27,180 nucleotides of DNA, taken from assembly GCA_965649295.1 (NCBI GenBank), contig CBFGKH010000016.1, positions 1-27,180 on the forward strand. Reading direction: 5' to 3'. The stretch comes from a candidate division WOR-3 bacterium. GTDB taxonomy: Bacteria; Hydrothermota; Tepidihabitantia; Tepidihabitantales; Tepidihabitantaceae. Positions 3,280 through 7,011 of the stretch are shown here, piece by piece. A program made the translations under genes and the position numbers. How positions within the stretch are numbered: the stretch's first letter is position 1; every line of letters begins with the position of its first letter. The notes beneath the pieces were generated by a model. That model ran no database searches. It was given only the letters and a program-made list of their open reading frames with translations, and was not told where the DNA came from.

Positions 3280-3307
3280 TTGACTCGGGAAGGCACTGGC
3301 CTATAGT
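3280..3307 (+). promoter_or_regulatory. sigma70 promoter of the response regulator
   Basis: TTGACT (3280-3285), 16 nt, TATAGT (3302-3307); GTG follows at 3316 with no SD. Confidence 0.7.
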
Positions 3308-3315
3308 TGACGCTA

Positions 3316-4704
3316 GTGGCAAAACCGCTCGTTTTTGTGGTTGATGACGAACCGTTGGTGGCCAAGGCCGCGGCAATGGCCCTGACTGCGGCCGGCTATG
3401 AGGTGCGCACCTACAGCAAGGGCAGTGATGCAGTAGCAGTGGTGAAAGTCAAGCCACCGCAAGCAGTGCTGCTCGACCTGATGCTTGACGACATTGACGG
3501 ACTGGCAGCATTGCGGGAGATGAAAGCGGCCGCAGCCGACATGCCGGTGGTGATGATGTCAGGCAAGGGGACGATCAGCACCGCGGTCGAGGCGATGCGG
3601 CTGGGCGCGTATGATTTCCTGGAGAAACCAGTCGAGCCGGCACGGGTGCAGGCAACCATCCGGCGGGCGCTGGAACAGCAGGAACTGGCCCGGCAGGTCT
3701 CGTCGTTGCGGCGCGAGCTGGCCGACCAGTATCTGATGGTGGGACGGTCAGCCGCACTGGCGGCGGTGCGTGACACCATCAGCCGGGTTGCACCGACCCG
3801 AGCCAGTGTGCTTATCACCGGCGAAAGTGGGGTAGGCAAGGAACTGGTGGCGCGGGCCCTGCACCTGGGCAGCGACCGAGCTGCAGCACCGTTCGTTACT
3901 CTCAACTGTGCTGCAATCCCGAAGGAGCTGATTGAGAGCGAACTGTTCGGTCACGAGCGAGGGGCGTTTACCGGCGCCCAGACCAGCCGCAAGGGTAAAC
4001 TCGAACAGGCTGACGGCGGCACCTGCTTTCTGGATGAGATTGGTGACATGAGCCTGGCCGCCCAGTCGAAGCTCCTGCGGTTTCTTGAGAATGCCGAAGT
4101 GCAGCGCATTGGCCGGAACGAGGCAACGGTAGTTGACGTGCGGGTGATTGCCGCAACCAACAAGAACTTGCCTGAGGCGGTCCGGGCTGGTACGTTCCGC
4201 GAGGACCTCTATCACCGCCTGAACGTTGTTACGATTGACGTGCCGCCATTGCGGCGGCGACCAGACGATATCGAGCCGCTGGCCCGGCACTTCCTTGCGC
4301 GATTCTGTGCCCAGCACAACCGGTCAGTCGAGTTTGGCCCGGGCTGCAGCGAAGTGCTCCGGTCCCACTCCTGGCCGGGCAATGTTCGCGAGTTGCGTAA
4401 CGTCATTGAGCGAACCGTAGTGCTGGCACGCAGTAACCCGGTCAATGCCGATGAGCTACGTTGCTTCATCACGAGCACACCAGCATCGGCCTGCGGTTCA
4501 ACACTAGCCGCGGCAATTAGACGGGCTGAACAGGAAGCGGTGGAGTCAGCAATCAGCCTAAGCGGCGGCAATTTTACCGAGGCTGCTCGGATTCTTGATA
4601 TCGAACGGGCGAGTCTCTACCGAATAATGAAAAGGTTGGGAATCGACAGAAATCAGGGCCGGCATGACGGCAACGCCGAAATCTGCAGGCCACAAACCGA
4701 CTGA
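3316..4704 (+). CDS. sigma54-dependent response regulator (NtrC/AtoC/ZraR family; REC-AAA+-Fis HTH)
   Basis: VVDDE...LLDL receiver; GESGVGKE Walker A; ESELFGHERGAFTGA; FLDEIGDM; FREDLYHRLNV; WPGNVRELRN; C-terminal HTH. Start moved from TTG 3307 (overlaps the -10 box) to GTG 3316. Confidence 0.95.
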   Translation: MAKPLVFVVDDEPLVAKAAAMALTAAGYEVRTYSKGSDAVAVVKVKPPQAVLLDLMLDDIDGLAALREMKAAAADMPVVMMSGKGTISTAVEAMRLGAYDFLEKPVEPARVQATIRRALEQQELARQVSSLRRELADQYLMVGRSAALAAVRDTISRVAPTRASVLITGESGVGKELVARALHLGSDRAAAPFVTLNCAAIPKELIESELFGHERGAFTGAQTSRKGKLEQADGGTCFLDEIGDMSLAAQSKLLRFLENAEVQRIGRNEATVVDVRVIAATNKNLPEAVRAGTFREDLYHRLNVVTIDVPPLRRRPDDIEPLARHFLARFCAQHNRSVEFGPGCSEVLRSHSWPGNVRELRNVIERTVVLARSNPVNADELRCFITSTPASACGSTLAAAIRRAEQEAVESAISLSGGNFTEAARILDIERASLYRIMKRLGIDRNQGRHDGNAEICRPQTD

Positions 4705-4824
4705 TAACGAAGCCATCCTAAGACTGCCATCACCGTATCTCAGCGGTAACGCCCAGTAACCGAAAAGCAACAATCATCTCGCCGCCAGTACTACTAAGTG
4801 ACGTAGAATCGGCATATCAATTGC

Positions 4825-4840
4825 TGGCACGGCTGTTGCA
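4825..4840 (+). promoter_or_regulatory. sigma54 (-24/-12) promoter
   Basis: TGGCACGGCTGTTGCA matches the TGGCACG-N4-TTGCW consensus; 120 nt downstream of the activator gene; predicted +1 near 4851. Confidence 0.85.
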
Positions 4841-4849
4841 ACTGCGGGA

Positions 4850-5155
4850 CTGGTGCCGGTGGTTGATTCTGGAGACCACGGCCGGTTAGGGGTGGAGAGC
4901 AAGAGCCGCGAGGGCGTAGCTCAGTCCCATGTCTACTCGGCGTCGGCAGCCGCGGGTGCATCCAGCAATGCATCACTCGCAGCCTCCCTGGGTGCGCCAT
5001 GCCGCTGCCGACGCTGAGAGAGATAGCTGAGCTTCGAGAACAGCATCGGCACCAGCTACGTCAGGCAAACGGGGATGCCTGGCCAGATACCGTCCAGTAT
5101 GGGACAGGGGACGGCACAAGCACACGAGCAGGGGCGTAATACGCGCCCCTGCTCG
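4850..5155 (+). ncRNA. Putative sigma54-dependent structured ncRNA, family not recognised
   Basis: Nested helices 4850-4861/5044-5055 (12 bp), 4918-4924/5027-5033 (7 bp), 4936-4950/5004-5018 (15 bp), 4955-4965/4988-4998 (11 bp); all non-Watson-Crick pairs are G-U on the + strand; begins at the predicted +1; ends at hairpin 5125-5155; no credible ORF. Confidence 0.65.
5125..5155 (+). terminator. GC-rich hairpin, probable 3' end of the ncRNA
   Basis: CGAGCAGGGGCG-taatacg-CGCCCCTGCTCG, 12-bp perfect stem; no U tract. Confidence 0.55.
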
Positions 5156-5181
5156 GACTAACAGCCGCCGACTATTGCCGC

Positions 5182-5209
5182 TTGACGCCCGAGAGCCAGT
5201 TCCTATAAT
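5182..5209 (+). promoter_or_regulatory. sigma70 promoter, probably leaderless transcript
   Basis: TTGACG, 16 nt, TATAAT, then 5 nt to GTG 5215; no SD. Confidence 0.8.
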
Positions 5210-5214
5210 CGGGC

Positions 5215-6051
5215 GTGCATCAAGACAAGAGGGTCCAGCAGCGGCTGGGCCTTCAACTGCTTTTTGACTTCGACGACATTACTGACGCAATCGAGTATGC
5301 AGCGGCCAACGGCTTTGCGGTGCTCGAGCTGAACCTCGGCAATCTGAACTTCAGCCGCCAACTGGCAACCATCATTGGCCGCCGACGAGTGCGGCAGGCT
5401 GCTAGCCGGGCCGGCATCACGCTCTGCCTGCACGCGATTGACGGCCCTTCGTTCTTTGTACCGAGTGACCGAGTGCGACGGTGCGCGGTACAGGAACTGC
5501 GGCGTCAACTCGACTGGGCTGCGGGAATCGGTGCTGCCAATCTCGTCTGCCATCTTGGGTTTGATATGAACTTCGGGATGGACGGCGGTCGGCGTTATAC
5601 CCACGAGGAGTTCCCCAGTTACTACCGGCGCGGCATTGCCGAGGCGCTCGCTGAGCTGAAAGCCCATGCTCGCGGTCGGGCCCGGCTCTGCATCGAGAAC
5701 GTTGGTGGATTCCGTTATGAGCTAGTGTTGCCGATCGTCCAGCGACTGCTGGGCGGAAGTCTCGGGCTCTGTCTTGACATCGGTCATCTTAATATTCTAC
5801 CGCCGGCCCAGCGCCGGCAGGAGCTCCGTTTCTTTCGTCGCAATTCGCGGCACATCTTTCACAGTCACGTCCACGACAACGCTGGTCAGCGTGATGAGCA
5901 CCGGGCCCTAGGCACGGGCCGGATTGATTTTCTGCCGTTCTTTCGGCTGTTGGCCCGAACCCCGGCGCTCATCGTCTTTGAGGTCCGGCCGAAAGAGGCG
6001 GCGCTACAGAGCCGCGACTATTTCCTGCGTGAGGTTGCGCCGAAGCTGTGA
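5215..6051 (+). CDS. Sugar phosphate isomerase/epimerase family TIM barrel (AP endonuclease 2-like)
   Basis: Metal-ligand motifs LCIEN, LCLDIGH, HSHVHDN, DEHRALGTG, FEV. Confidence 0.85.
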   Translation: MHQDKRVQQRLGLQLLFDFDDITDAIEYAAANGFAVLELNLGNLNFSRQLATIIGRRRVRQAASRAGITLCLHAIDGPSFFVPSDRVRRCAVQELRRQLDWAAGIGAANLVCHLGFDMNFGMDGGRRYTHEEFPSYYRRGIAEALAELKAHARGRARLCIENVGGFRYELVLPIVQRLLGGSLGLCLDIGHLNILPPAQRRQELRFFRRNSRHIFHSHVHDNAGQRDEHRALGTGRIDFLPFFRLLARTPALIVFEVRPKEAALQSRDYFLREVAPKL

Positions 6052-7011
6052 ATGAAAGCTCTTGTCACCGGCGCCAGCGGCTTCATTGGGTCGCACCTCT
6101 GCGACCTGTTGCTCGCCCACGGCCACCAGGTGCGCGGCCTCGTCCGTCGAACCAGCAACCAGCAGTGGTTGCAAGGCAAGGATGTCGAGCTGTGCTATGG
6201 CGAACTGCGCGACCGTCAGTCCCTGCAAACGGCCGTGGCCGGAATGGACTGGGTTTTCCACGTTGCGGCGACGCTGCGGCCTCGGCGGATTGCCGATTTT
6301 CTGCGAGTGAACTATCAGGGCACGAAAGTGCTTGCCCAGGCAGCCAGCGCTGCCGGCGTGCAACGGTTCGTCCTTTTTTCAAGTGCGGCGGCCGGCGGTC
6401 CAGCCCCCAGCCCGAAAGGGCAGATTTGCGAAGAACAGGAGCCACGTCCGGTTACTGTCTATGGTCGGGGCAAGTTGCGTGCCGAACAGGCGCTCATCGG
6501 CTGGCGCGACCAGCTCCACTCGGTCATCCTGCGGTTCCCGGCAGTGTACGGACCGCGGGACCGGGACGTCTTGATGCTATTGCGGGCCATCAAGCGCGGC
6601 ATCCTGCCCGAGTTCGGTGGCACATTCTCGCTCGTCTATGTGGCCGATGCCGTGCGGGCCGCACTGCTGGCCGTCGAAAAGCCGGTGCCTTCCGGCTCGG
6701 TTTACTACATCAGCGACGGCGCCTGCCACAGCTATGCCGAGCTGGCAGCGCTGGCTGGGCGATTGCTCGGTCGGCGGCCGTTGCGGATTCGCGTTCTCCC
6801 GTGGGCGCTGCTGGCTGCTGGCTGGCTGAGCGAGCGGGTGACAAGGGACGGTGCAATCTTCAACCGGGACAAGGCACGGGAACTGGCGCAGCCTTGCTGG
6901 GTCTGCTCAATCGCCAAGGCGCGTCAGGAACTCGGCTATGAGGCAGAATACTCACTCGAAAGGGGCATGAGTGAAACATTCCGCTGGTATCAGGAGCAGG
7001 GATGGCTATGA
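6052..7011 (+). CDS. NAD-dependent epimerase/dehydratase (extended SDR); ceramide-reductase-like candidate
   Basis: TGASGFIGS Rossmann motif; YGRGK catalytic YxxxK; VYGPRD; C-terminal KARQELGY...WYQEQGWL. Abuts the upstream stop. Confidence 0.9.
   Translation: MKALVTGASGFIGSHLCDLLLAHGHQVRGLVRRTSNQQWLQGKDVELCYGELRDRQSLQTAVAGMDWVFHVAATLRPRRIADFLRVNYQGTKVLAQAASAAGVQRFVLFSSAAAGGPAPSPKGQICEEQEPRPVTVYGRGKLRAEQALIGWRDQLHSVILRFPAVYGPRDRDVLMLLRAIKRGILPEFGGTFSLVYVADAVRAALLAVEKPVPSGSVYYISDGACHSYAELAALAGRLLGRRPLRIRVLPWALLAAGWLSERVTRDGAIFNRDKARELAQPCWVCSIAKARQELGYEAEYSLERGMSETFRWYQEQGWL

Follow-up and report, generated by a model that had tools for sequence, protein, structure and literature searches.

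A candidate sigma-54-dependent, rod-shaped non-coding RNA downstream of an orphan NtrC-type activator gene in a candidate division WOR-3 bacterium

The DNA analysed here, below called the window, is a stretch of 27,180 nt from a candidate division WOR-3 bacterium (assembly GCA_965649295.1, contig CBFGKH010000016.1, positions 1 to 27,180); it makes up contig C16, one of the 19 contigs that together form a 2.28-Mb genome rated 100% complete. On the + strand, the gene of an NtrC-type enhancer-binding protein (hereafter the activator) is followed by an exact sigma-54 promoter, and this promoter leads into a rod-shaped fold of extreme predicted stability and a GC-rich hairpin. An earlier note, made from the letters alone, had proposed at this place an undescribed module of a regulator and a small RNA (sRNA). 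With a confidence that stands about midway, we read the region as the gene of a lineage-specific non-coding RNA of ~305 nt whose expression would depend on the activator and on sigma-54. In the following, G000 denotes the genome under study, G007, G016, G022, G029 and G033 are relatives, g9 is a related genus, and L009-L139 are fetched loci of relatives.

The activator gene (3316-4704, + strand) is complete. Its product shows matches to Response_reg (5.7e-27), Sigma54_activat (3.9e-71), AAA_lid_14 and HTH_8, giving an architecture of receiver domain, AAA+ sigma-54 interaction domain, lid and Fis-type helix-turn-helix, and the receiver aspartate region LLDLML, the Walker A motif GESGVGKE and the GAFTGA loop are all intact in the translation. 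No kinase gene adjoins it; the earlier note had called the activator an orphan. The note had left the presence of rpoN to be confirmed, and the gene was found in the genome (161.7 bits).

The sigma-54 promoter TGGCACGGCTGTTGCA (4825-4840, + strand) starts 120 nt after the activator stop codon (4702-4704), at the distance given for a consensus -24/-12 promoter in the earlier note. It is an exact TGGCAC-N5-TTGCA and meets the TGGCAC-N5-TTGCW consensus at the correct spacing. The window holds one exact match against 0.05 expected, at least one match being present in 5 of 100 shuffled sequences, and the whole genome holds seven. Counting from position 4839, the C in the GC of the -12 element, transcription is predicted to start at ~4850-4853. 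Further exact sigma-54 promoters stand at C2:5315-5381 and C2:204549 of the same genome, ahead of genes for signal-peptide proteins, and the two sigma-54-like sites at C2:5315/5366 face away from each other.

The promoter does not stand alone. Positions 4735-4840 align without gaps to six g9 cassettes, which lie downstream of orthologous activators in three genomes; 38 of the 155 alignment columns are invariant, and the spacing of palindrome, CTAAGT box and promoter is identical. The predicted activator-binding region defined by this alignment (4735-4771, + strand) reads GTATCTC-ag-CGGTAAC-gccca-GTAACCG-aa-AAGCAAC, and its 7-2-7-5-7-2-7 geometry matches the tandem palindromes of the orthologues. 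The CTAAGT box (4794-4799, + strand) is invariant in all seven aligned cassettes and lies exactly 25 nt ahead of TGGCA in every one of them. In addition, the activator and the g9 proteins share one and the same DNA-reading helix, ERASLYRIMKR. The gap-free alignment and the identical recognition helix together indicate that the promoter is therefore part of a real, conserved control cassette. Elsewhere in the genome, 22 palindromes of the orthologue type were found, none of them within 300 nt of a sigma-54-like promoter.

The sequence downstream of the promoter folds with unusual strength. Positions 4845-5160 reach -171.3 kcal/mol (z -6.88), a value equalled by none of 100 shuffled sequences. 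The core is a predicted rod domain of 206 nt (4850-5055, + strand), closed by a 12-bp helix (4850-4861/5044-5055) that begins at the predicted +1, as the earlier note had noticed; its figure of 45 bp for the domain was an undercount, since the 211-nt model of 4847-5057 contains 77 bp. Inside the rod, a purine-rich, asymmetric, one-sided internal region with small hairpins (~4874-4917) is followed by a long distal hairpin (4918-5033), whose apical loop exposes GCCUCC. This architecture persists when the sequence is folded at 75 C. Two small predicted hairpins follow on the same strand (5060-5083, 8 bp; 5090-5114, 6+2 bp), and then a GC-rich, terminator-type hairpin without a U run (5125-5155, 13 bp with 12 perfect pairs), an order in which the small hairpins and a 12-bp closing hairpin had already been described. 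We presume that the last hairpin forms the 3' end of the transcript.

The fold was compared with the rest of the genome by scanning the + strand of 326 intergenic regions in 1539 windows of 210 nt at a coarse step. A window lying off-register over the rod ranked first of the 1539. The second most stable window was C3:129772-129981, with -106.2 kcal/mol at only 56% GC. The minimum free energy of the segment from +11 to +220 is -116 kcal/mol here and -63 to -86 kcal/mol at the six other exact promoter matches.

A strong inverted repeat could also act at the level of DNA, as a solitary repeat resembling a miniature inverted-repeat transposable element (MITE) or as a cruciform palindrome that landed behind the promoter by chance. 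Both strands indeed fold well (z -6.9 and -5.9; the reverse strand of 4845-5160 reaches -153.5 kcal/mol, z -5.91), and transposase fragments occur at the corresponding place in G007. However, the + strand is more stable by 18 kcal/mol, and the pairs of the rod include eight G-U and no A-C mismatches, the 1x1 mismatches being G.G, G.G and C.C. This 8:0 bias has a one-sided p of 0.004 under neutral decay of a palindrome with strand-neutral transitions. The statement of the earlier note that G-U wobbles occur only on the + strand thus stands for the rod as paired, and fails for the reverse strand's own best fold, which also uses seven G-U pairs. The register of the closing helix with +1 is not expected of a chance insertion either. 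The dispersed copies that would mark a MITE-like repeat were looked for, and the element was found at one place only in the genome, with no non-self match better than 15 nt; the relatives, plasmids and phages contained no match to it. We regard the DNA-level explanation as the least probable of those considered.

Could the sigma-54 promoter serve the next gene? That gene, which is not part of the element, encodes a xylose-isomerase-like TIM-barrel protein by domain match (5215-6051, + strand). It has a sigma-70 promoter of its own, TTGACG-16-TATAAT (5182-5209), as the earlier note had stated, and this promoter ends 5 nt before the GTG start at 5215 (promoter and start codon together 5182-5217, + strand). 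The arrangement TTGAC-N16/17-TATAAT-N5-GTG stands ahead of the TIM-barrel gene in 32 of 32 loci, namely those of G000, 19 relatives (L118-L136) and 12 metagenome contigs, whatever lies upstream. Judged by sequence, this is the layout of a leaderless mRNA with a conserved GTG-start arrangement. The activator gene itself has the same layout (3280-3318): a sigma-70-like promoter, TTGACT-16-TATAGT (3280-3307, + strand), ends 8 nt before its GTG, and its mRNA, too, is probably leaderless. The other neighbours of the activator gene are housekeeping genes and a gene for a large Ig-domain protein on the opposite strand.

With its own start in 32 of 32 loci, the leaderless TIM-barrel gene is therefore not the target of the sigma-54 promoter. 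The alternative would be a long structured 5' leader, in which the sigma-54 promoter supplies a conditional second start for the TIM-barrel and epimerase genes and the hairpin 5125-5155 works as an attenuator. The genes do lie on the same strand, with 374 nt from the promoter to the GTG at 5215, and a hairpin lacking a U run may permit read-through. But the GTG has no Shine-Dalgarno sequence and keeps its own promoter at every locus, and read-through would bury the leaderless start inside an RNA. Leaderless starts inside longer RNAs are poorly translated. We consider a 5' leader very improbable.

A small protein gene behind the sigma-54 promoter was weighed as well, with the rod controlling translation. 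Two + strand open reading frames (ORFs) come into question, a leaderless one of 54 aa starting with GTG at 4853 and one of 46 aa (4999-5139), whose stop lies within the loop capping the 3' hairpin. The GTG at 4853 coincides with the predicted transcription start, in an organism that appears to use leaderless mRNAs with GTG starts. The g9 cassettes drive a peptide family, MSSTTDV...DEW, and in G033 an ATG at the same distance from a homologous promoter opens an 83-codon frame that is partly similar to the g9 peptides. In addition, the two one-base length changes of one related strain (see below) cancel out and lie upstream of 4853. Against this, the two ORFs, the best on the + strand, have per-codon scores of -0.09 for the 54-aa frame and 0.01 for the 46-aa frame, where chunks of true genes give 0.27 +/- 0.14 and wrong frames -0.37 +/- 0.44. 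Neither is similar to the g9 peptides, the 46-aa ORF has no Shine-Dalgarno sequence ahead of it, and a protein is unlikely to be encoded by a frame that covers the two arms of a hairpin of 120 nt. An exact look-up of the translations of 15 intergenic ORFs in a protein collection found none recorded as a called gene. A small protein is thus improbable in our view. The independent next gene and the lack of a good coding frame bear out the earlier remark that the sigma-54 promoter has no obvious protein target.

The MSSTTDV...DEW family comprises small ORFs of 40-83 aa after g9 cassettes (L011:2947-3069, L012:2658-2879, and L010 on the minus strand), and its reading frame seems to shift between the g9 genomes. 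Up to three such cassettes stand in tandem downstream of the orthologous activator (L011:2584-2933, L012:1773-2644, L010:1282-1427). A further output of the g9 cassettes is a unit of ~60 nt, closed by a GC hairpin with a U run and found by BLAST in 3 of 11 g9 genomes. The g9 units after the cassettes were examined as possible counterparts of the rod and rejected, as they lack strong structure (z -0.9, 0.05 and -1.2).

Sequences related to the locus are present in hot-spring metagenome runs (a search for runs gave seven, all of DNA), and contigs from these metagenomes match 3300-6100 at about 94-95% identity. One strain contig spans this interval with 147 differences and no gaps; another has 177 differences and two one-base length changes, at 4846 and 4851, both just at the predicted start. 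Among the differences listed, all of them outside 4540-5714, 39 of 40 fall at third codon positions and 39 of 40 inside the activator gene, where 38 of 39 are third-position changes. The excess of third-position differences indicates that the coding flanks are therefore under purifying selection, and the activator with them. A third strain contig covers 4782-5046 only and differs at 7 of 265 positions, compared with 61 of 1019 in the coding pieces of the same run (p 0.03; ~1e-9 against the implied third-position rate). This difference points to constraint on the promoter and the rod, as far as alignments of strain sequences can tell.

At least 11 genomes from the family encode orthologous activators (53-60% identity). 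Downstream of these stand sigma-54-type promoters, TGGCAC-N5-xTGCA, each type preceded by tandem palindromes of the kind GTAACCG-nn-CGGTGAC. What follows the promoter varies. In G000, the slot between the activator and TIM-barrel genes measures only 510 nt and holds the rod. In L009, L014 and L015, a leader motif, CATCACGGCGGCACCG(A)GCC, is conserved ~50 nt after the sigma-54 promoter and stands ahead of genes for signal-peptide proteins. In L018 (G029), the first ORF, ~200 nt after a sigma-54-like promoter, resembles a Flp-type pilin (…GQTMLEYVVIVV…), as judged by eye. A comparison of the intergenic region with the loci of the relatives by blastn-short and tblastx gave nothing above noise, and a shared CATC..GGCACC stretch hinted at by an alignment of leaders was too weak to count.

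Several observations weigh against a selected RNA at this locus. In G022, G016 and G007, where a single contig holds both the activator and the TIM-barrel gene, the two are 4-6.5 kb apart, and the slot carries genes for secreted proteins that are mutually unrelated and bear FlgD_ig/Por_Secre_tail sorting domains; because the slot of related genera holds protein genes, the element could be what a deletion left behind. The element has no recognisable homologue. BLAST of 4800-5170 against 60 relatives returned only chance matches of 25-30 nt, a covariance model made from this one sequence picked up no homologue among 100 relatives, of which 43 belong to the same family (best foreign score 18.7 bits, E 0.72), and the same model gave nothing convincing in 72 fetched loci. 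Since no homologue was found in the relatives, the fold has no support from covariation. Of the four half-sites in the binding region, the inner two are intact and the outer two match at 4 of 7 positions each. The 3' hairpin has no U run, and the low divergence of the element rests on one contig with a depth of 2.9. Neither Hfq (PF17209) nor CsrA (PF02599) was found in the genome. In a search for antisense targets, the best match in the genome was 15 nt long (E 0.54), which is not above chance, and when duplexes with mRNA 5' ends were scored by energy, that of the activator ranked 167 and that of the TIM-barrel gene 352 among 400 random windows. Of the module proposed by the earlier note, the layout is upheld, and the idea of a conserved module is not, no homologue having turned up in 100 relatives.

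Searches for closer relatives of the locus reached no further. Metagenome contigs searched with the TIM-barrel protein yielded 66 loci, none of them close, with amino-acid identities of at most 72%, and genome contigs searched with the activator yielded 80 generic activators, all at or below 49% identity.

The main rival arises from these comparisons. It holds that the region is the leftover of a lost, activator-driven operon for secreted proteins, of which the promoter, the terminator hairpin and fragments of leader and trailer would survive; transcription from the promoter may continue, and the product would be functionless. The unrelated cargo in G022, G016 and G007, the IS3-type fragments in G007, the degenerate outer half-sites and the lack of a homologue outside the lineage all suit such a history, and the 3' hairpin resembles those that end the slot in relatives, where hairpins of this type close the last gene (without a T run in two relatives and with one in a third). 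The transposase fragments in the G007 slot (L139:4562-5426; HTH_Tnp_1 and rve) fit a high turnover of the slot.

However, debris would not be expected to form the most stable intergenic fold of the genome, to begin its closing helix at +1, or to show G-U pairs and A-C mismatches in a ratio of 8:0. The promoter has kept the exact consensus, which is better than the xTGCA form of the orthologues, and in related strains the element diverges several-fold more slowly than third codon positions. Neither the sequence nor its translation resembles the operons of the relatives. In addition, the activator remains under purifying selection, while none of the 22 palindromes lies near another sigma-54-like promoter. 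A selected RNA fits better than debris because the control cassette is homologous, the promoter is exact and the helix starts at +1, because the G-U bias is confined to one strand, the stability is extreme and a 3' hairpin bounds the element, and because the next gene is independent and divergence is slow. We accordingly rate the leftover as rather unlikely and prefer the non-coding RNA.

The element was also compared with known RNA families. Run over 4600-5300 with a threshold of E 10, the 4227 models of Rfam gave no credible match; the best were eukaryotic microRNA models, with 25 bits against a cut-off of 100. At the gathering level, nothing was found across the whole window. 6S RNA, another rod of about 200 nt, was rejected: RF00013 has no match here at E up to 10, and the 6S RNA of this genome lies at C1:197727-197901 (50.9 bits). 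The bubble of 6S RNA is two-sided, whereas the internal loop here is predicted to be one-sided. Judged by these model searches, the element belongs to no described RNA family, in line with the earlier note, which had not recognised one.

We propose the following course of events for the preferred reading. An unlinked kinase would phosphorylate the activator and thereby switch it on; the activator would bind at 4735-4771, where the tandem palindromes are partly degenerate, and open the sigma-54 promoter at 4825-4840. Transcription would start at ~4850-4853 and end at the GC hairpin 5125-5155, giving a non-coding RNA of ~305 nt whose 5' end is locked in the very stable 206-nt rod. Locally, this RNA would be the output of the activator in this lineage, and possibly its sole one, and would occupy the slot in which related genera carry activator-driven genes for secreted proteins. 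We infer that it may act in trans as a riboregulator with no need for Hfq or CsrA. The likeliest contact sites would be the apical loop, whose GCCUCC complements Shine-Dalgarno sequences, and the purine-rich internal region. Our best guess for the mode of action is pairing through a short seed in one of these two places, or protein binding to the long helix.

Enhancer-binding-protein genes followed by a sigma-54-dependent RNA gene have precedents, and the two pairs closest in layout, both already named in the earlier note, hold as they are described in the sources cited here. In Myxococcus xanthus, the pxr gene is intergenic and lies directly downstream of nla19, which encodes a sigma-54-dependent response regulator; its sigma-54 promoter is in the same intergenic region, the RNA has multiple stem-loops, and an unrelated metabolic gene follows (PMC5568312). 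Pxr is a ~108-nt RNA with three stem-loops that is conserved across myxobacteria, whereas the element here would give ~305 nt in the shape of a rod, is confined to one species-level lineage, has no match by sequence or in Rfam, and is known from sequence alone. In Pseudomonas, crcZ lies downstream of cbrB, and CrcZ (with CrcY and CrcX) is described as an RNA of several hundred nt, transcribed as a separate unit from a sigma-N promoter that the neighbouring activator switches on directly (PMC8871633). CrcZ differs in that, according to the same source, it sequesters Hfq/Crc through repeated A-rich motifs (PMC8871633); no Hfq gene was found here, and the RNA is predicted to be mostly double-stranded.

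The Vibrio luxO-qrr1 and Escherichia coli glrR-glmY pairs are alike in that their sigma-54-dependent small RNAs stand under NtrC-type activators. The qrr1 and glmY genes adjoin the genes of these activators, luxO and glrR. Qrr1 and GlmY differ from the present element, however, in being short, linked to Hfq or RapZ and gamma-proteobacterial, and no similarity to them was detected. A literature search brought up systems from proteobacteria, myxobacteria and spirochaetes only, and others may be in print.

The comparison of slots suggests a wider idea, which is tentative and rather doubtful. The control cassette, with its two palindromes, CTAAGT box and promoter at fixed spacing, may be a portable socket for outputs, which holds different cargo in different genera: unrelated operons for secreted proteins in G022, G016 and G007, DEW peptides and terminator-ended ~60-nt RNAs in g9, and in G000 the 305-nt rod RNA as the sole local output. 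Such an RNA would need neither Hfq nor CsrA and might, for instance, serve as a double-stranded decoy or as a precursor that is processed.

If the preferred reading is true, an activator-adjacent sigma-54 regulatory RNA would exist in a bacterium from hot springs that is uncultured and belongs to a candidate phylum, where the known cases are a few proteobacterial and myxobacterial systems. The RNA would offer a short, well-bounded target for metatranscriptome mapping, and the family can now be searched for the activator's binding motif and for the cassette. Should the region prove to be a leftover, the locus would show a regulator outliving its target. Of more general interest is the prospect that the output of a conserved cassette can be swapped; in evolutionary terms, one control cassette would drive operons for proteins in the sister genera and an RNA in G000.

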